DNA of 60,865 bases from Proteobacteria bacterium UBA6522 (GTDB lineage Bacteria; Pseudomonadota; Gammaproteobacteria; Steroidobacterales; Rariloculaceae): NCBI GenBank assembly GCA_002434915.1, contig DJLG01000177.1, forward strand, positions 5,001 through 65,865. The letters are read 5' to 3'. The translations under genes were made by a program, and so were the position numbers. The first letter of the stretch is position 1; every line of letters begins with the position of its first letter. Positions 22,270 to 59,512 of this stretch are shown here, one piece after another. Below the pieces are notes generated by a model. That model did not search any database and had not been told where the DNA came from. It saw nothing but the letters and a program-made list of their open reading frames with translations.

Positions 22270-22841
22270 AAATCTGTGGCCTAAGCACAGAAAAAGATGT
22301 ACAGGCAGCGATATCAGCTGGCGCAGATGCATTGGGATTTGTCTTTGCCAGCTCGCCGAGAAAGATAAGCCCTGATCGTGCGCTTTCCTTATGTAAAAAT
22401 ATTGGAGATCATATAATTCGAGTAGCGGTAATGCGTCACCCTACGCCAGATGAGTGGGGCGAAGTGAAAACTGTATTTGCCCCGGACTGGCTTCAGACAG
22501 ACCATGAAGATTTTAAATCACTCAACCTTGGAGACTGTAAGTCGCTGCCAGTATTTCGGACAGGGCATGTATCTGAGCTAAAAGAATTGCCACGACCTAT
22601 GCTTTTTGAAGGGATGAACAGCGGAGCTGGTGAAAAAGCCAACTGGGAAGAAGCTGCACTTGCAGCGGCTAGTACACAGTTGGTTCTCGCGGGTGGTCTT
22701 ACCGCTGAAAATGTTGAGATAGCTATCAAGTCAGTATCTCCATGGGGAGTTGATGTATCCAGCGGCGTTGAAGTTGCCCATGGAACTAAAGACCCATCTA
22801 AAATTCGAGAGTTTATCGCCCAGGTCCGGGCGACGGAGTAA
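22260..22841 (+). CDS. trpF: N-(5'-phosphoribosyl)anthranilate isomerase
   Basis: 193 aa with N-terminal FIKICGL and the C-terminal GVDVSSGVE pattern. It overlaps trpC by 10 nt. Confidence 0.88.
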   Translation: MFIKICGLSTEKDVQAAISAGADALGFVFASSPRKISPDRALSLCKNIGDHIIRVAVMRHPTPDEWGEVKTVFAPDWLQTDHEDFKSLNLGDCKSLPVFRTGHVSELKELPRPMLFEGMNSGAGEKANWEEAALAAASTQLVLAGGLTAENVEIAIKSVSPWGVDVSSGVEVAHGTKDPSKIREFIAQVRATE

Positions 22842-24112
22842 TGATGATACGACCAAACGAAGAAATAAATGAGAAGAAACTATTGAGAGCGCTTGTTGAT
22901 GGAAAGTTGCCCGATGCTTCTGGGCGTTTTGGACCTTTTGGAGGACGCTATGTCCCTGAAACCTTAATGCCTGCAATTGAGCGGCTTACTGAAGGTGTTC
23001 ACCGATTACTTCCGGACGAATCATTCAATCACAAACTAACCTCACAATTAAAAGAGTGGGTAGGAAGACCCACTGCATTAACTCACGCGGCTAGGCTTTC
23101 AAAAGCTTGGGGTGCAGATGTTTGGTTTAAACGCGAAGATCTTGCTCACACTGGTGCACATAAAATTAATAATGCAATTGGACAAGCCTTGCTTGCCAAA
23201 GAACTCGGTGCAACAAGAATCGTTGCAGAAACAGGTGCGGGACAACATGGGGTTGCCTCAGCAGCAGCTTGTGCACGAGTAGGGCTACCATGTGTGGTCT
23301 ATATGGGCGAACTTGATATACAAAGGCAATCACCAAATGTTGATCGCATGAAACGTCTGGGCGCTAATGTAGTCTCAGTTAACTCTGGTGACCGCACTCT
23401 ACGTGCTGCCATCGATGAAGCTATCAGAGACTGGGTTTCCGATCCAGTTGATACCTATTATCTTCTAGGCTCAGCTGTAGGACCGCATCCATACCCTTTC
23501 TTGGTTAGGGAACTACAAGCTGTTATTGGCCGAGAGGCCAGATCACAATTGGAAACACACGGAGGTCTTCCTGATGCGGTTTTTGCATGTGTTGGAGGAG
23601 GATCCAATGCGATTGGTCTTTTTCATGGTTTCCTAGGAGAGGAAAATATAAGCCTAATCGGTGTAGAAGCAGGGGGCCGTGGCGATGATCTCGGTGATCA
23701 CTCTGCTACTCTAGGTTCGGGACGTCCAGGTGTACTACATGGTGCATACAGCCTTTTATTGTATGACGATCATGGACAAATCCAAGAAACACATTCTGTT
23801 TCAGCAGGGCTAGATTATCCTGGAGTTGGCCCTGAACATGCCTTATTAAAGCTCGTAGGCAGAGTTAAGTATGTCACCGCAAAAGATTCTGAGGCTTTAG
23901 ATGCATTACAGGAGTGCTGTGAGTTAGAAGGAATTTTACCTGCTCTAGAAACGGCTCATGCTATCGCAGGTGCTCGGCATTGGGCTTCAACAAATCAAGG
24001 AGCACGGATTCTTATCGGGCTTTCCGGGCGAGGAGACAAGGATATGCCGATACTCAGCCAGTACCCCATCAAAACAAATGACACGGAAGGGGCTGAAAAT
24101 GCTGCCGCATGA
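22841..24112 (+). CDS. trpB: Tryptophan synthase beta chain
   Basis: 423 aa with FGPFGGRYVPETL, the PLP-lysine motif HTGAHKINN, and GGGSNAIG. Confidence 0.95.
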   Translation: MMIRPNEEINEKKLLRALVDGKLPDASGRFGPFGGRYVPETLMPAIERLTEGVHRLLPDESFNHKLTSQLKEWVGRPTALTHAARLSKAWGADVWFKREDLAHTGAHKINNAIGQALLAKELGATRIVAETGAGQHGVASAAACARVGLPCVVYMGELDIQRQSPNVDRMKRLGANVVSVNSGDRTLRAAIDEAIRDWVSDPVDTYYLLGSAVGPHPYPFLVRELQAVIGREARSQLETHGGLPDAVFACVGGGSNAIGLFHGFLGEENISLIGVEAGGRGDDLGDHSATLGSGRPGVLHGAYSLLLYDDHGQIQETHSVSAGLDYPGVGPEHALLKLVGRVKYVTAKDSEALDALQECCELEGILPALETAHAIAGARHWASTNQGARILIGLSGRGDKDMPILSQYPIKTNDTEGAENAAA

Positions 24113-24860
24113 GGCCCTTAAGAATGCCCTAGAAAAATCTGAAGAATCTGCACTTGTTGCCTTCCTAACGGCTGGCTATCCTGAACCTAAAAATTTCCTT
24201 AATGTTCTTTATGATGTATCAGAGGCAGCTGATGCAGTTGAAATAGGTGTCCCTTTCTCTGATCCAATGGCTGACGGGGTAACTATTCAACGGTCTAGTC
24301 AAGCAGCAATTGAACATGGCGTAAGCCTTAGCTGGATACTGGATCAACTGGGCAGTAGAACAATAAAAAGTAATACACCACTACTTTTAATGAGCTATCT
24401 CAACCCATTGCTTGCTTTTGGTTTCGACGATCTTGCCTCGCGAGCTCTACAAGTTGGCGTAAGCGGCTTTATCATTCCAGACCTTCCATACGAAGAAAGT
24501 ATGCTGCTTAAGACATCACTGGATAAGGTAGGCATTGCTTTAATTCAACTGGTTACACCAGCTACCCCATCTATTCGCCTTAACGAAATTTGTCAGGCCA
24601 GCCAAGGTTTTGTCTATGCCGTCACGAGGACAGGCATTACAGGTAGTGCAACACAATTTCCTGCGGACCTGGCCGACTATCTTGCTGCCGTAAAAGAAGC
24701 CGCAAAGGTGCCTGTATGCGCTGGTTTCGGGGTTCGAAAAAGTGAGCAGGTGCGAATGATTTCAAGGCATGCTGATGGAGTAATTGTTGGTTCCGCTCTG
24801 GTCGAGGCTCTTGAGAGAGGTGAGAATCCTGGAGAGTTTCTTCGGAATCTGCGCCCATGA
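24099..24860 (+). CDS. trpA: Tryptophan synthase alpha chain
   Basis: EIGVPFSDPMADG motif is present. The track ORF opens at 23958 inside trpB. The Met at 24099 (MLPHEALKNALEK) follows GGAAGGGG and gives the usual short trpB/trpA overlap. Confidence 0.9.
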   Translation: MLPHEALKNALEKSEESALVAFLTAGYPEPKNFLNVLYDVSEAADAVEIGVPFSDPMADGVTIQRSSQAAIEHGVSLSWILDQLGSRTIKSNTPLLLMSYLNPLLAFGFDDLASRALQVGVSGFIIPDLPYEESMLLKTSLDKVGIALIQLVTPATPSIRLNEICQASQGFVYAVTRTGITGSATQFPADLADYLAAVKEAAKVPVCAGFGVRKSEQVRMISRHADGVIVGSALVEALERGENPGEFLRNLRP

Positions 24861-42787: not shown

Positions 42788-43051
42788 CTACCTCTTAGCT
42801 CTGTTGGCTGCCGTGACTATTGCAGCAGCTAAAAGCGCTATGCCAACCGAAACCCCAATAGCTGCCCCAACAGAGGCCCCAATACCGGGCACACCAAAAA
42901 AAGCGCCAAATATTATGCCAAATATAACGCCGATAATTACCCCAGCAGGGAGCGCAGCAACGCCCCAAACTGGAAAAAATTTCTCACGATTTAGCCTAGC
43001 TCGTTGTTCTATCAAATCTTTCACTCTGTTGAGTCCACCCAGGAAGCCCAA
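42788..43051 (-). CDS. Small glycine-zipper membrane protein (hypothetical)
   Basis: 87 aa with GxxxG-rich hydrophobic segments (GVIIGVIFGIIFGAFFGVPGIGASVGAAIGVSVG). It overlaps the upstream thioesterase gene by 31 nt. Confidence 0.5.
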   Translation of the reverse strand: MGFLGGLNRVKDLIEQRARLNREKFFPVWGVAALPAGVIIGVIFGIIFGAFFGVPGIGASVGAAIGVSVGIALLAAAIVTAANRAKR

Positions 43052-43536
43052 CCTTCTGGCAGTTTTTTAACCCCTAACACAGACATGAATTTCTTAGGGC
43101 TCAACGGCACAATCTTATACTGGCCGTTTACTAATAAATCACCTGATTCATTTCTTGCGTCATTGTGAACGGTTTGAATCCTTCCTGCTTCGGCTAGATT
43201 CGGTATGGTTGCTGAAAGATATAGAGGTTCACCTTCTCTCGCAGGACGATGATATGTGACTTGTGCCGACCTCAGGAGCCAAAGCGCCTTCGGCCCTTTT
43301 GTGAGCATCATCCCCGACCAGCAAGCTATACAATCAAGAGCTGTAAAAACAATGCCACCATGTGTAATACCGGGAAATCCGATTAAAGAAGGGTCCGGCA
43401 AAAAGATCCCTATGATTTTTTTTGGGTCGTTCGGGTCATAATTAACCTTTAGCTGTAACCCTTGGCTATTGGACGGACCACATCCAAAACACACACTATC
43501 AGCAATGAATCTATCGTTTAGCGCTTGCTCTGACAA
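43021..43536 (-). CDS. PaaI-family hotdog-fold thioesterase
   Basis: 171 aa, TTG start, with CFGCGPSN and the GITHGGIVFTALDC motif. Confidence 0.8.
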   Translation of the reverse strand: MSEQALNDRFIADSVCFGCGPSNSQGLQLKVNYDPNDPKKIIGIFLPDPSLIGFPGITHGGIVFTALDCIACWSGMMLTKGPKALWLLRSAQVTYHRPAREGEPLYLSATIPNLAEAGRIQTVHNDARNESGDLLVNGQYKIVPLSPKKFMSVLGVKKLPEGWASWVDSTE

Positions 43537-43549
43537 AGCATTTACTCCA

Positions 43550-43786
43550 TTAATTCTTTGATTGCATCGCTATCCTGAGAAACTTTATTATTTCTTCGTC
43601 AGCTGGAAAGCGCCCTTCCTTGTCTTTTGAAAAAATAAATTCGCTATTAAAAAAAATATCGAATACACCATTACTTCCCTCAATGAGCCTCACATCGATA
43701 GCTAATTCTTTCTTTATTTTTGCCTCCAGACCGGCGGCAACTGAAAGATAATTTCAACGCCCACAATATTTAATTATGACACTCAT
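43550..43786 (-). CDS. SelW/SelT/SelH (Rdx) family selenoprotein, with Sec encoded by in-frame TGA at 43754..43756
   Basis: Not in the ORF track. The minus strand reads ATG(43786) MSVIIKYCGR-U-NYLSVAAGLEAKIKKELAIDVRLIEGSNGVFDIFFNSEFIFSKDKEGRFPADEEIIKFLRIAMQSKN, ending at TAA (43550..43552). The TGA falls at the second redox position of the CxxU/CxxC motif. GxF(D/E)I...IFSK...GRFP is typical of the family. A SECIS-like hairpin follows. Confidence 0.8.
43712..43747 (-). promoter_or_regulatory. Bacterial SECIS-like stem-loop downstream of the UGA
   Basis: The mRNA reads UGA-AAUUAU-CUUU-CAG-UUGCCGCC-GGUCU-GGAGGCAA-AAAU-AAAG. The upper stem (43733..43740 with 43720..43727) forms 7 of 8 bp. The loop is GGUCU and starts 24 nt after the U of the UGA. 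A lower 4-bp stem pairs CUUU with AAAG. Confidence 0.5.
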
Positions 43787-43794
43787 GACTCACC

Positions 43795-44157
43795 TCACCC
43801 ATTTAATAGAATTCCAATAGTCTTCAAAGATAGTAAAGCCATAAAAATGAATAGTCCGGTCGTTGTGAGCGCCATAATCCATTTGGCCACTATTGACAAC
43901 TTATATCTCATTCTATCAATAAACGTTATGCCTAATTCCATCTCTTCTATGGGAGTAGAAAACATCTGTCCCACTACTAACAGGGACAGCATCCATAACA
44001 TTATTACGATGGAAATTAGCGAAAAAGTCTGGGTTCCATAAGGCCCCACATAAAACAAAAGCCCAAGAAATACGCAAATAGATCCTAATGCCAAACCCCA
44101 GATTATGAGTCTATTAGCATAAAGATGTCGGCCAAGAAAACTATAAAATTTAAGCAT
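43795..44157 (-). CDS. Hypothetical multi-pass membrane protein
   Basis: 120 aa with three to four hydrophobic helices and no recognised family. It ends 8 nt before the SelW-like start codon. Confidence 0.5.
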   Translation of the reverse strand: MLKFYSFLGRHLYANRLIIWGLALGSICVFLGLLFYVGPYGTQTFSLISIVIMLWMLSLLVVGQMFSTPIEEMELGITFIDRMRYKLSIVAKWIMALTTTGLFIFMALLSLKTIGILLNG

Positions 44158-53977: not shown

Positions 53978-55372
53978 CTAATTATCAAGACCTAGCTCCT
54001 TGATTTTTCGGGTTAAGGTATTTCTTCCACAGCCTAACAGTCTTGCCGCTTCAAGGCGCTTTCCGTCTGCACAACGCAAAGCAGCTTCAATCAGTGTTCG
54101 CTCAAATGCTGGCAAGGCTTTAGTAAACAATGGCGCCATTGGCGTAGATGACAATTGCTCTTCTGCCCACTGCGCAAGGCTTTGCGTCCAATCATCATTG
54201 GAACACAGTCCTTCTCCTCCCAGTTCCGACGGGAAATCAGCAGTAACTATTTCCGAGCCAGCGGCAGTAATCATTAAGCGCCGACACATGTTAACTAACT
54301 CACGAACATTGCCAGGCCAATCGTAATGCAACATTGCCTGTGAAGCGCCAGAACTTAATGTTTTTGGCCCCACACCAAGCTCTCTAGCTGCCTGGTTAAG
54401 GTATACGCTAGCAAGCGTAGTTATATCCTCTTTACGATCACGCAAAGGGGGAACATCTATTCCCATTACATTGAGACGGTGGAAAAGATCCTCACGAAAC
54501 TTCCCAACATTTACAGCATTACTAAGATCTTGGTTAGTGGCTGCTATGACTCTTACATTAACCCTGACGGACTTTTGCCCTCCAACGCGGAAAAACTCGC
54601 CTTCTGCTAAAACGCGTAACAAATGTGTCTGCAGCTCGACCGGCATATCACCAATCTCATCTAAGAATAGAGTCCCTCCCTCAGCTTGCTCAAACCGACC
54701 TATTCGACGTTCAGAGGCTCCCGTAAAAGCGCCTTTCTCATGACCAAAAAGTTCAGACTCTAATAAGTCGGGCGTAATAGCCGATGTGTTTAGAGCGATA
54801 AATGGAGCATCCGCACGGGGAGAGTTTTCATGTAATGCCCGAGCTACCAGCTCTTTCCCTGTGCCGGACTCGCCAGTAATTAAAACGGTCATGCTTGAGC
54901 GTGATAAACGGCCTATAGCACGAAATACTTCTTGCATCGCTGGGGCCTGCCCAATCATTCTTGGGGCGCTCTTTATTCCGTCTACTTTTGGGTGCCCAGA
55001 TATCTGGCCTGCAGCTCTTGAAACTAAGTCTATTGCGTCATCAATATCGAAAGGTTTAGGCAAATACTCAAATGCTCCGCTCTGATAAGAGGACACCGCA
55101 TTATCAAGGTCTGAGTGTGCTGTTATGACAATAACTGGAATGTCTTCATTGCGAACACGGAGGGTTTCCATTAGCTCTAAGCCTGTCATATCAGGCATAC
55201 GAATATCTGTGATAATGACGTCCGGTTTATCCTTATTTAGCGCCCGAAAAAAAACTTCTCCTGAATCAAAGCTACGCGGCTCCATTTGTGCCTGCTTAAG
55301 CGCTTGCTCTAAAACCCAACGAACTGATTCGTCATCATCTACAACCCATACTGATAGCATAGAAGCAGACAC
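53978..55372 (-). CDS. ntrC: Nitrogen regulation protein NR(I), sigma54-dependent response regulator
   Basis: 464 aa with a receiver domain (DDDESVR...DIRMPDMTG), an AAA+ domain (GESGTGKE, GAFTGA, ESELFGHEKGAFTGA) and a C-terminal HTH. Confidence 0.93.
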   Translation of the reverse strand: MSASMLSVWVVDDDESVRWVLEQALKQAQMEPRSFDSGEVFFRALNKDKPDVIITDIRMPDMTGLELMETLRVRNEDIPVIVITAHSDLDNAVSSYQSGAFEYLPKPFDIDDAIDLVSRAAGQISGHPKVDGIKSAPRMIGQAPAMQEVFRAIGRLSRSSMTVLITGESGTGKELVARALHENSPRADAPFIALNTSAITPDLLESELFGHEKGAFTGASERRIGRFEQAEGGTLFLDEIGDMPVELQTHLLRVLAEGEFFRVGGQKSVRVNVRVIAATNQDLSNAVNVGKFREDLFHRLNVMGIDVPPLRDRKEDITTLASVYLNQAARELGVGPKTLSSGASQAMLHYDWPGNVRELVNMCRRLMITAAGSEIVTADFPSELGGEGLCSNDDWTQSLAQWAEEQLSSTPMAPLFTKALPAFERTLIEAALRCADGKRLEAARLLGCGRNTLTRKIKELGLDN

Positions 55373-56460
55373 TAGCTTGGCCTATGCTCATTAGATATTG
55401 CTGGCAGAAACATTTGGAATTTTGTTGAGCCAGGATTGCTTTGAAATTCTATTAGGCCCCCGTTACGACTGACAAGGTCCTGCGCGATGGTAAGGCCAAT
55501 TCCCGTACCGGTACTATGCCCTGTTACCAAAGGATAAAAAATGGTCTCCCGCAGCTCATCTGGTATCCCAGGACCATTGTCTTCAACTTCGGCACATAAA
55601 ACCAGGCGGTGCCTTTCCCCGCCAAGCGTATAGTTGTTAAACGCCCTTGTCCTAAAAGTTAACAGGCCTTTTGTGCCTATAGCTTGCAAGCCATTCTTTG
55701 CGATATTTAAAAATGCTTGTATTAACTGATCCCGATCTGCCTTTGTGAGCGGCAAACTTGGATCATAGTCTCTTTGTAACTCAACACCCTCGAGTCTCTC
55801 TGCCTCTATTAATTTAGCCACATGCTCAGTGACCTCATGAAGATTAAAGACCTCTTCTTTTGACTGCCTTCCAGCATCAAGGATGCTATCAACTAATGAG
55901 GCTAAACGATCAGCTTCATCAATGATCACCTTCGTATAAGCTTTCAAGTCAGCTGTAGGTAATTGACGAGCTAAAAGCTGGGCCGCTCCTCGTAAACCTC
56001 CAAGCGGATTTTTAACTTCGTGTGCCAACTGCTTAACAATGCGTCGGCTTACACGACGTTGTATTCCTAATTCCGCTTCACGACGAATCTGGCGATCACG
56101 CTCTGTATCAAAAAGCTCTAAAACCAGCTGATCCGCTAACCCTTCAAGGGGTGCCACACGGCAATCTAGTAACATCTCACGCTCGCCAACACATGTAGCG
56201 ATTTCCCTTGCTCCACATGTCAGCCCGCTTTCTGCTGCTCGTTGACACAACCCTAAGAAATCATCAAAGGGAGCAAAACAGTCGCTAATGGGCTTACCAC
56301 ATGCCTGTGTACGGCTAACACCAAGCAAGCTCTCCGCTGATGAATTTAAGGTTATGATATTGAAATCTAAATCTAGGGCTACCACAGCGGTCGTTAGCCC
56401 CTGGAGTATTGTTTCGGAATCCAAATTAATATTCCGTAAATGTACCCTTTGAGACTCCAC
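55372..56460 (-). CDS. ntrB: Nitrogen regulation sensor histidine kinase NR(II)
   Basis: 362 aa, GTG start. It has a PAS-like N-terminus, H-box HEVKNPLGG, and ATP-binding blocks (DNGPGIP, GTGIGL). It overlaps ntrC by 1 nt. Confidence 0.88.
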   Translation of the reverse strand: MESQRVHLRNINLDSETILQGLTTAVVALDLDFNIITLNSSAESLLGVSRTQACGKPISDCFAPFDDFLGLCQRAAESGLTCGAREIATCVGEREMLLDCRVAPLEGLADQLVLELFDTERDRQIRREAELGIQRRVSRRIVKQLAHEVKNPLGGLRGAAQLLARQLPTADLKAYTKVIIDEADRLASLVDSILDAGRQSKEEVFNLHEVTEHVAKLIEAERLEGVELQRDYDPSLPLTKADRDQLIQAFLNIAKNGLQAIGTKGLLTFRTRAFNNYTLGGERHRLVLCAEVEDNGPGIPDELRETIFYPLVTGHSTGTGIGLTIAQDLVSRNGGLIEFQSNPGSTKFQMFLPAISNEHRPS

Positions 56461-56484
56461 TGATAGCTCCGATAGAATCGGTAA

Positions 56485-56500
56485 AGCACTATAAGTGCCA
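56485..56500 (-). promoter_or_regulatory. Sigma54 -24/-12-like element (also a short palindrome) between glnII and ntrB
   Basis: The minus strand reads TGGCAC-TTATA-GTGCT, against the consensus TGGCAC-N5-TTGCW. GG and GC are spaced by 10 nt. The predicted start site would be about 14 nt upstream of the ntrB GTG at 56460, with a GGAG in between. Confidence 0.35.
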
Positions 56501-56567
56501 ACCGTAAAGCTTTTAAGCTCTAGTGATTAGAAAACGCCTACCTTCTTTGGTCTACATTGCACTAATG

Positions 56568-57578
56568 CTATACGCCAGACCCCTTGGTAGTTTTGACAAT
56601 TGCAGCAGCAACCTTATAAGGATCTGCATTAGATGCCGGTCTGCGATCTTCCAACCGTCCTTTCCAACCATCATCAACTGTTCCTACAGGTATCCGAATA
56701 GATGCGCCCCTATCAGAGACTCCGTAGCTAAACTCATTGATTGACTGTGTTTCGTGCAATCCGGTTAGACGTTGGTCGTTATCTGCCCCATAAACACTTA
56801 TATGCCTTTCAATGTTTTTTCCAAATTCTTCGCAAATTTTATGAAAAACTTTTTCGTCTCCGGACTCGCGCATTACAGCATTAGAAAAATTTGCATGCAT
56901 TCCCGATCCATTCCAATCTGTTGGTCCGAGTGGTTTAGGGTGCCATTCTATTGCATATCCATGTTTTTCTGCTGTCCGTTCAAGTATATAACGAGATATC
57001 CAAGTTTCGTCCCCAGCACGCTTAGCTCCTTTTGCGAACACCTGGAATTCCCACTGACCAGCAGCTACTTCTGCGTTAATACCTTCAATGTTTATCCCTG
57101 CTTCTAGGCAGGCATCAAAGTGTTCTTCAATGCAATCTCTTCCGTATGTGTTATTGGCGCCTACTGAGCAGTAGTATGGGCCTTGCGGTCTTGGGTACCC
57201 TCCTTCTGGAAACCCAGGCGGGAGATCAGATATCGTATCCCAAAGGAAGTACTCTTGTTCGAACCCGAACCAGAAATCTTCATCGTCGTCATCTATGGTA
57301 GCTCTACCATTTGACACGTGAGGTGTCCCATCGGCATTTAAAACTTCGGTCATCACTAAGTAAGCATTCAACCGCAGGGGATCAGGATAAATGGCCACTG
57401 GTTTTAGGAGACAGTCGGAATCGCTTCCGTCAGCTTGTAGGGTAGAACTTCCGTCAAATGACCACATAGGGCACTCTTCAAGTGTTCCGCCAAAGTCTGA
57501 CGCAATTCGTGTTTTGCTTCGCAGGCTCTGAGTTGGCGTATAGCCGTCGAGCCAAATATATTCCAATTTACTTTTCAT
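56568..57578 (-). CDS. glnII: Glutamine synthetase, type II (eukaryote-like GSII)
   Basis: 336 aa. It starts EYIWLDG...LRSKT, and carries FGFEQEYF, GINAEVAAGQWEFQV, NGSGMHANFS and RGASIRIP. Length and motifs fit GSII, not the roughly 470-aa GSI. A strong SD (GAGGAGGAG) precedes it. Confidence 0.9.
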   Translation of the reverse strand: MKSKLEYIWLDGYTPTQSLRSKTRIASDFGGTLEECPMWSFDGSSTLQADGSDSDCLLKPVAIYPDPLRLNAYLVMTEVLNADGTPHVSNGRATIDDDDEDFWFGFEQEYFLWDTISDLPPGFPEGGYPRPQGPYYCSVGANNTYGRDCIEEHFDACLEAGINIEGINAEVAAGQWEFQVFAKGAKRAGDETWISRYILERTAEKHGYAIEWHPKPLGPTDWNGSGMHANFSNAVMRESGDEKVFHKICEEFGKNIERHISVYGADNDQRLTGLHETQSINEFSYGVSDRGASIRIPVGTVDDGWKGRLEDRRPASNADPYKVAAAIVKTTKGSGV

Positions 57579-57955
57579 GAGCTTCTTTGCTCCTCCTCAA
57601 TTTATTATTACAGTTCTTAGTAAGCCGTTTGGTCCGTTTAATTCAGTTGGTGGTCGAATACATCTGTTAGTTTGATCTTAGACGTTTCAGCAAATCAGAC
57701 AATCTGTATCAATATACGTTACAGGTAATATTTATGCCAAACCCAAAGATCACCTAAGTTTTTGTTTTTTCTAAAAATAATCGAATTTCCCAAAAGGCTT
57801 TTGCCCCAGGATGGTGCGATTTATGCATATGATGCCCTATTTGGGTGCTGAAGTGGAGATTTTAGAGCATTTAACATTAACTACTGGGGCTAGCGTTCTA
57901 ACTATATACTGGCGTCAATTTTTAGGCCGCCCTGTTGTTGTGGCGGGAGAGTTCA

Positions 57956-59512
57956 ATGGATTTAATGGATAAGCTAGTCTCACTTGCCAAGCGTAGAGGG
58001 TTTATTTTTCCCTCCAGTGAAATTTATGGGGGCCTTAGTGGCTGTTGGGATTATGGTCCATTAGGCGTTGAGCTAAAACGTAATGTCAAAGAAGCTTGGT
58101 GGCAGGATATGGTTAGCCGTCATGATGAAACGATGGTAGTTGATGATGGGCCATCGGCATATTCTATGGCAGGAATCGATAGCTCTATTTTAATGAATCC
58201 GCGCGTTTGGCAGGCTAGCGGACATGTTGATGGGTTCAGTGATCCTATGGTGGACTGTCGCGAGACCCGTAATCGGTATCGTGCTGATCAGATGGTGGTT
58301 TTTGGTCTTGTGGAAAACGATCAAACTAATAAACCAATTGACGATAATACAATATTATTTGCGGCCCCCGGAGAGCTAGAGTCAACAGATGAGGAGGAGT
58401 TATTAGCTCCTCATAAAAAACAAGTTTCTAAAATAAGAAAGGCGCTTGGCAGCTTTAAGATGGTACAAATACCTGGGGCTTTATCTGATGCGGCTTTACG
58501 AGCCAGAACCCTGGCTCCTGGAGCATCAGAACCAGGAACATTAACGGAGCCGCGTGCTTTCAATCTTATGTTTGAAACGCATGTCGGAGCTCTAAAGGAT
58601 AGCTCTAGTACCGCCTATTTACGACCAGAAACCGCCCAAGGGATTTTTGCGAATTTTAAGAATGTATGTGATACAGCACGAGTGAGGCTGCCTTTTGGAA
58701 TTGGGCAACTAGGCAAGGCTTTTCGGAATGAAATAAACCCTCGTAACTTTACATTTAGAAGTCGTGAGTTTGAACAAATGGAGATTGAGTTCTTCTGTAA
58801 GCCGGAAGAAGCCAGCATGTGGTACCAATATTGGCGCAATAGACGTTATAACTGGTACATCGGCCTTGGCATTGATAAAGCTAAACTTCATTTGAGGGAA
58901 CATGAAAAGAATGAATTAGCTCACTACGCTAGATCATGTGCTGACGTAGAGTATGAGTTTCCTTTTGGAATAAGCGAACTTGAGGGTATTGCAAACCGAA
59001 CTGATTTTGATCTCCGTCAACATATGGAGCACAGCAAAAAAGATCTTCGATATCTAGATGATCTTGAGCCAGACAAGGAGAAAAGGCGCTTCCTTCCATA
59101 TGTTATCGAACCCTCAGCAGGAGCAGACCGTGCAACGCTTGCTTTTTTATGCGATGCCTATACAGAAGATAAAATTAGCGGAGAGACTCGGACAGTATTA
59201 AAGCTTCACCCCAGATTAGCGCCTATAAAGGCGGCTGTCTTTCCTCTTGTAAAAAAAGATGGAATGCCTGATAAAGCTCTCGCTATTTATCGCGAGTTAC
59301 GCAAACAATTTACTACCTCTTATGATGAAAAGGGGGCTATAGGAAGGCGCTATCGACGCCAAGACGAAGCTGGCACACCATTTTGTATAACTATTGATGG
59401 CGACACTATGACCAATGGTACGGTTACACTACGCGAGCGTGATACATGTGAACAAATCCGCTTGCCAGCAACCGAGCTTTTAGCTTATATAAATGAACGG
59501 CTTGATGAATGA
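57956..59512 (+). CDS. glyQS: Glycine--tRNA ligase, single-chain alpha2 (GlyQS) type
   Basis: The ORF opens at TTG 57935, but I prefer ATG 57956, which follows GGGAGAG. RRGFIFPSSEIYGG..G.WDYGP.G..LK.N, YLRPETAQG.F, FRNEI.PR.F.FR.REFEQMEIE.F and PSAG.DR are present. This pattern belongs to the dimeric GlyRS, not the glyQ plus glyS type. Confidence 0.9.
   Translation: MDLMDKLVSLAKRRGFIFPSSEIYGGLSGCWDYGPLGVELKRNVKEAWWQDMVSRHDETMVVDDGPSAYSMAGIDSSILMNPRVWQASGHVDGFSDPMVDCRETRNRYRADQMVVFGLVENDQTNKPIDDNTILFAAPGELESTDEEELLAPHKKQVSKIRKALGSFKMVQIPGALSDAALRARTLAPGASEPGTLTEPRAFNLMFETHVGALKDSSSTAYLRPETAQGIFANFKNVCDTARVRLPFGIGQLGKAFRNEINPRNFTFRSREFEQMEIEFFCKPEEASMWYQYWRNRRYNWYIGLGIDKAKLHLREHEKNELAHYARSCADVEYEFPFGISELEGIANRTDFDLRQHMEHSKKDLRYLDDLEPDKEKRRFLPYVIEPSAGADRATLAFLCDAYTEDKISGETRTVLKLHPRLAPIKAAVFPLVKKDGMPDKALAIYRELRKQFTTSYDEKGAIGRRYRRQDEAGTPFCITIDGDTMTNGTVTLRERDTCEQIRLPATELLAYINERLDE

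Follow-up and report, generated by a model that had tools for sequence, protein, structure and literature searches.

Positions 43550-43786 of the window (the whole 60,865-nucleotide stretch of DNA that was analyzed), read on the minus strand, very probably form an intact gene for a SelW-like protein in which an in-frame UGA is decoded as selenocysteine, giving a putative Cys8-Gly-Arg-Sec11 active-site motif. This assignment was reached by comparing sequences. The original prediction had preferred selenocysteine insertion to a pseudogene, a preference that is supported by the conservation of the TGA column among relatives, by a selenocysteine/cysteine pair between this gene and its homologues and by the presence of a SECIS-type hairpin. 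The family is already known and is abundant in marine bacteria. The main value of the result is therefore a corrected annotation. The gene also makes it likely that an uncultured marine lineage of the Gammaproteobacteria uses selenocysteine, and it provides a clean SECIS example with covariation common to Gammaproteobacteria and Campylobacterota.

Coordinates of the SelW-like gene, of its elements and of the upstream gene, with the basis of each assignment.
Feature	Position	Strand	Basis or remark
SelW-like (Rdx family) selenoprotein gene, complete	43550..43786	(-)	translation, Pfam, TIGR02174, structures, dN/dS
Start codon ATG	43784..43786	(-)	GTG in one relative (L002)
C-G-R-U redox motif, TGT GGG CGT TGA	43754..43765	(-)	aligns with CxxC of 2LJK, 2FA8, 2OJL and 2P0G
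In-frame TGA, codon 11, probably read as selenocysteine	43754..43756	(-)	TGA column conserved, 22/22 loci
SECIS-like hairpin UUGCCGCC/GGUCU/GGAGGCAA	43720..43740	(-)	7 bp, one G.A mismatch, -8.5 kcal/mol
Apical loop GGUCU	43728..43732	(-)	G43731 and U43730 invariant; 26 and 27 when counting from the U of UGA
TAA stop of the selenoprotein gene	43550..43552	(-)	translation
Shine-Dalgarno-like GAGGTG	43791..43796	(-)	sequence reading; conserved in L001 and L002; putative function
120-aa hydrophobic, presumably membrane protein	43795..44157	(-)	family unknown, no Pfam match

Reading frame and protein family

The open reading frames 43021..43536 and 43795..44157 are separated by a gap of 258 nt, for which the mechanical list of open reading frames has only a 47-aa fragment starting at GTG. 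A hidden frame containing an in-frame TGA had been proposed to occupy this gap. It is present there, exactly at the predicted coordinates. Minus-strand translation gives 78 sense codons, including the UGA (Sec) at codon 11, and then the TAA. The N-terminus before the TGA reads MSVIIKYCGR, with the codons AGT GTC ATA ATT AAA TAT TGT GGG CGT following the ATG, and a further 67 sense codons (NYLSVAAG...MQSKN) separate the TGA from the TAA. The CGRU motif is located immediately C-terminal to the first predicted beta strand (VIIKY). The GAGGTG is positioned 4 nt 5' of the ATG, where it overlaps the TGA with which the upstream gene ends.

The readthrough translation, with U read as C, was compared to family models. 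It matched the Pfam Rdx model (PF10262) with an E-value of 5.6e-16, which is far beyond chance, and with residues 3-70 aligned on profile positions 2-72 of 74. As expected from the original prediction of an Rdx-type protein, the scores exceeded the curated cut-offs both for this model (59 bits versus 22.6) and for TIGR02174, CXXU_selWTH (46.6 bits versus 34.2). The best NCBIfam score, 70.2 bits, was obtained with NF041051 (SelTWH_Campy). As the equivalog cut-off is 88 bits, the protein appears to be a sister of the Campylobacterota equivalog rather than a member of it. The two share their length class, the FSKDKEGRFP block, the TGA at codon 11, the register of the SECIS hairpin and the G-U of its loop. 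However, identity between the SelW-like protein and the NF041051 relatives is only 35-44%, their motif is CNQU instead of CGRU, their stem has 5 bp instead of 7, and their genomic context is different.

A phmmer search of the PDB sequences matched seven Rdx-family structures, which are of the Cys type: MIEN1/C17orf37 (2LJK), Atu0228 (2FA8), 2OJL, the V. cholerae SelW-related protein (2P0G), 2OKA, 3DEX and 2OBK. Likeness extends over residues 3-74, at low identity (E = 1.8e-7 to 0.05), and the structures correspond to longer proteins (about 100-117 aa versus 78 here). Their CxxC motif is in the matching place, with a Cys where the present gene has TGA. Indeed, in the printed alignments (2LJK, 2FA8, 2OJL and 2P0G) the TGA column coincides with the second Cys of YCxxC. 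The TGA had been assigned from the sequence pattern to the second redox position of the CxxC/U motif, and this is where the Cys homologues of solved structure have their second Cys. The TGA column and the Cys of the homologues constitute a classical Sec/Cys pair. Homology to the solved Rdx structures also suggests a thioredoxin-like fold for the SelW-like protein.

The gene was also compared to the SelW-like genes of marine bacteria known from the Sargasso Sea and from GOS. These encode proteins of about 75-90 aa, in which an N-terminal beta strand is followed by CxxU, and they combine an in-frame UGA with a SECIS hairpin directly downstream, in a marine bacterial host. All of these features are found here, and no essential difference from this family was noted; the lineage in the present case is an uncultured gammaproteobacterial one. 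In the 2005 Sargasso Sea data, SelW-like CxxU proteins were the most abundant selenoprotein family, with 48 genes (PMC1088965). In GOS they ranked first once more, with 427 Sec forms versus 56 Cys forms, and were particularly common in marine samples (PMC2398784). The gene described here fits this known family in every tested respect. It opens no new question, the SelW-like CxxU proteins having been the best-represented family in ocean metagenomes since 2005.

The hairpin downstream of the UGA

A hairpin, UUGCCGCC-GGUCU-GGAGGCAA, had been proposed to follow the UGA. It was found at 43740-43720, where it begins 13 nt 3' of the UGA, with a loop beginning 24 nt after the U of the UGA. Published constraints for bacterial SECIS elements are an apical loop of 3-9 nt, an upper stem of 4-16 bp, a G in the first two loop positions, a UGA-to-loop distance of 16-37 nt and a minimum free energy (MFE) of -7.5 kcal/mol or below (PMC13188914, Fig. 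2 legend). Scored by hand, the hairpin falls within all of these limits, with a 5-nt loop starting with GG, 7 bp, a spacing of 21 nt and -8.5 kcal/mol. Taken alone, it is thermodynamically unexceptional (z about -1.6), as 14-17 of 200 shuffled sequences fold equally well. The fold by itself is not beyond chance, and the case for the hairpin is a comparative one.

For this comparison, the 60 nt from the UGA were aligned across 14 distinct sequences, without gaps. Columns 17-24 were paired with columns 30-37 in 77.7% of cases, versus 33-54.5% when the partner was slid by 1-3 columns. The covariation score was 0.342, versus 0.142 in shuffles, and none of the 500 shuffles equalled it. The core pairs were also recovered independently by RNAalifold, and the G26 and U27 of the loop were unchanged in all the homologues compared. 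Changes on both sides were observed in four pairs (18-36, 21-33, 22-32 and 24-30), two of which are single differences between clades, so that independent compensatory events are few, roughly five. In the Campylobacterota set alone, the 5-bp core (columns 20-24 with 30-34) was 100% paired, and two pairs had changed on both sides. The change from C24-G30 to G24-C30, found in two loci (L014 and L023), involves two synonymous third-position substitutions (Ser UCC to UCG and Val GUG to GUC). The change from U22.G32 to A22-U32, found in L004, results from two substitutions which both alter the amino acid.

The Campylobacterota relatives have weak minimal hairpins, whose values (-3.4 to -6.0 kcal/mol) lie above the -7.5 threshold. 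Over positions +4 to +50, the values for these relatives range from -4.3 to -9.0 kcal/mol, and most still miss -7.5. In the Campylobacterota, an outer helix pairing columns 8-14 with columns 48-54 was also considered. It was 87% paired but displayed no change on both sides, and was rejected as unsupported. This pairing (AUAGACC...GGUCUAU; L003, L004 and L012-L024) may merely reflect conserved codons (YRP...VY). The analogous helix in the window (43743-43748 with 43707-43712) is an MFE prediction only. Searching Rfam gave no relevant match at the gathering score for the whole window, and only chance-level matches within 43500-43850 at E up to 10. Rfam SECIS models are mainly eukaryotic; the missing match is therefore weak negative evidence.

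The original prediction had likened the hairpin to the SECIS of E. coli fdhF, on the basis of the GGUC in the loop and the similar distance of its G-U from the UGA. Both points were confirmed on the real E. coli fdhF sequence. In the two genes, the hairpin lies within the coding sequence just 3' of the UGA. The hexamer GGUCUG occupies positions 22-27 from the U of the UGA in fdhF, and the identical hexamer is found at 25-30 here, placing the loop 3 nt (one codon) farther from the UGA. With GGUCUG in its loop, the hairpin could plausibly be recognized by E. coli SelB. The stems differ, with a G.A mismatch here and a bulged U in fdhF, and their sequences are unrelated. Moreover, the extended lower helix in this comparison is unsupported here.

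Conservation of the TGA and alternative readings

Homologues were collected by pattern-based scans in which the U column was left out of the pattern. The pattern scan yielded two gammaproteobacterial MAG contigs and two Sulfurospirillum genomes, and 19 metagenome contigs were obtained in addition. One match, in Bradyrhizobium (L005), was spurious and does not correspond to a homologue. The TGA was counted in the 21 loci covering the N-terminus and in the window, i.e. in 22 loci, which belong to Campylobacterota and to marine Gammaproteobacteria. In all of them the TGA is at codon 11 and is followed by 64-75 open codons, with no other frame break. The motif is CGRU throughout the gammaproteobacterial set and CNQU in the Campylobacterota set. 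For the 60 codons 3' of the TGA, dN/dS was 0.13-0.46 (Nei-Gojobori), and changes in the ten codons 5' of it are mostly synonymous. Purifying selection thus acts on either side of the TGA.

These data bear on the possibility that the TGA results from a nonsense mutation (TGC or TGT to TGA) in a decaying Rdx gene. A premature stop at codon 11, together with a public annotation limited to a fragment, is what such a pseudogene would present. The original prediction had turned to orthologues on this point, and these have the TGA in a single column in two phyla, without the scattered frame breaks of decay. Nor are the relatives copies of one contaminant sequence, their identity to the window ranging from 35% to 99%. 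Furthermore, the gene is kept where its neighbors are lost. Because the TGA column is conserved and the gene is under purifying selection, the pseudogene is effectively refuted, and we regard it as extremely improbable. An error of sequencing or assembly by which a Cys codon became TGA has in its favor only that such errors are possible a priori in a metagenome assembly. The identical TGA was recovered from independent assemblies (Tara, ENA, JGI and NCBI MAGs), including that of an isolate, Sulfurospirillum arcachonense DSM 9755, which makes the probability of such an error negligible.

It might also be proposed that the TGA is a true stop, closing a 10-residue leader peptide, and that translation from an internal start yields a protein of 47-59 aa, as annotated in GenBank. 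Gene callers did choose such starts (59 aa for P0001 and P0002, 47 aa for P0003 and 50 aa for P0004), and a GTG is available at codon 32 in the window. However, in the gammaproteobacterial copies the callers did not settle on one position, their starts being at codon 20 or at codon 32. Conservation extends to the Shine-Dalgarno site, the start codon and the first ten codons of the gene. The Rdx match begins at residue 3 and takes in the beta1-CxxU motif; without beta1 and the redox motif, the fragment would be devoid of the feature that defines the family. We therefore consider an internal start highly improbable.

Alternatively, the UGA could be recoded as a residue other than selenocysteine, either by a near-cognate tRNA (Trp or Cys) or through reassignment of TGA. 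Such decoding would be in line with the fact that no selenocysteine machinery was found in the window or in the fetched loci. However, 16 of the window's 48 long open frames end with TGA, and any recoding must therefore be specific to the gene and not a global reassignment. A search of the whole window for other frames interrupted by Cys/Ser/Thr-x-x-TGA gave no credible case besides the Rdx gene. The Cys in the TGA column of Cys-type homologues, as well as the conserved SECIS-type hairpin with its loop G-U at the canonical distance, also argue for selenocysteine. Finally, SelW selenoproteins and their SECIS elements are documented in the Epsilonproteobacteria, the class of Sulfurospirillum (PMC4607533, in which the genus itself is unnamed). 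Recoding to another residue is thus very unlikely, and so is a lineage devoid of selenocysteine machinery that decodes UGA in another way.

Under selenocysteine decoding, the ribosome would initiate at the ATG at 43786, behind the GAGGTG site, and at the UGA (43756-43754) SelB would deliver selenocysteyl-tRNA(Sec). SelB would be tethered by the hairpin located 13 nt downstream (43740-43720), which presents a G-U in its 5-nt apical loop, 21 nt past the UGA. Translation would then run on to the TAA at 43550. The product may be a small thiol/selenol oxidoreductase acting via a Cys-Sec selenenylsulfide.

The conserved UGA, the SECIS and the purifying selection together suggest that selA, selB, selC and selD are encoded elsewhere in the genome. 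Neither selA, selB or selD nor a tRNA-Sec was found in the window or in any of the fetched loci (23 loci). ARAGORN, run on the window and on 21 loci, detected no tRNA-Sec, and indeed no tRNA. When the window and all loci were searched by tblastn with E. coli SelA, SelB and SelD, nothing matched at E up to 1e-3. NCBIfam models applied to the large open reading frames of the window identified an ABC exporter, trpE, trpD, ntrB, ntrC, GlnII, GlyRS and HemY, and no selenocysteine machinery. In a database search with E. coli SelA, the named organisms among the matches listed were all Enterobacteria.

Gene neighborhood and public annotation

The Rdx gene belongs to a co-directional run. It is preceded by genes for an M23 peptidase, an S41 peptidase, a GNAT protein and the 120-aa hydrophobic protein, and followed by genes for a 4HBT thioesterase, a small hydrophobic protein, a DUF938 methyltransferase, a PPIase and a GFO oxidoreductase. 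The stop of the 120-aa protein gene is located 8 nt before the ATG of the selenoprotein gene, a spacing which suggests that the two are probably co-transcribed. Gene order is kept in the gammaproteobacterial relatives, where the membrane-protein and Rdx genes are always adjacent. In one relative (L002, 6228-6485) the 4HBT thioesterase is absent, and in two others (L001, 5510-5593, and L009, 2510-2593) the GNAT gene is mostly lost, with only a 28-residue remnant matching; all three retain an intact Rdx gene. The 120-aa protein displays 79-84% amino-acid identity in the more distant gammaproteobacterial relatives and is absent from the Campylobacterota contexts. In Sulfurospirillum, the Rdx gene stands alone between oppositely oriented genes.

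Since the two genes are adjacent in all gammaproteobacterial relatives, even where GNAT or 4HBT was lost, the SelW-like protein and the 120-aa membrane protein might form a lineage-specific functional module. We consider such a functional link rather unlikely. If it were real, the dedicated partner in the membrane would offer a first entry point to what bacterial SelW-like proteins do biochemically.

The selenoprotein is systematically mis-annotated in public records, whether the contigs are nearly identical to the window or related to it. Contig PASY01000025.1 (GCA_002712225.1; 71,907 nt; L025) is collinear with the window and has 99-100% amino-acid identity to it over 11 genes, three of which differ by one or two residues. 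In a Tara contig (L006), by contrast, 9 of 10 matched genes have 100% identity, and the M23 fragment has 99.6%. The annotation of PASY01000025.1 has only a 59-aa 'hypothetical protein CMD70_07815', whose start lies after the TGA (43550-43729 in the window; 10001-10180 in L025). A relative labelled 'Rdx family protein [Candidatus Rariloculaceae bacterium]', from a family placed in the Gammaproteobacteria, is also 59 aa long, and the other public records have fragments of 47 and 50 aa starting after the TGA. The SelW genes of Epsilonproteobacteria are typically missed by annotation as well (PMC4607533).

Some other features of the window were noted. The glycine-tRNA ligase at 57935-59512 (+) is of the dimeric (alpha2) type (NF003211, 642 bits); most Gammaproteobacteria have the alpha2beta2 enzyme GlyQ/GlyS. 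At 53978-57578 (-), a gene for a GlnII-type glutamine synthetase immediately precedes ntrB and ntrC; it scores 387 bits with NF041605, below the 500-bit equivalog cut-off. Finally, the long open reading frames 22841..24112 and 23958..24860 (+) are in different frames and have 155 nt in common, which could be due to an over-extended start call or to a frameshift.
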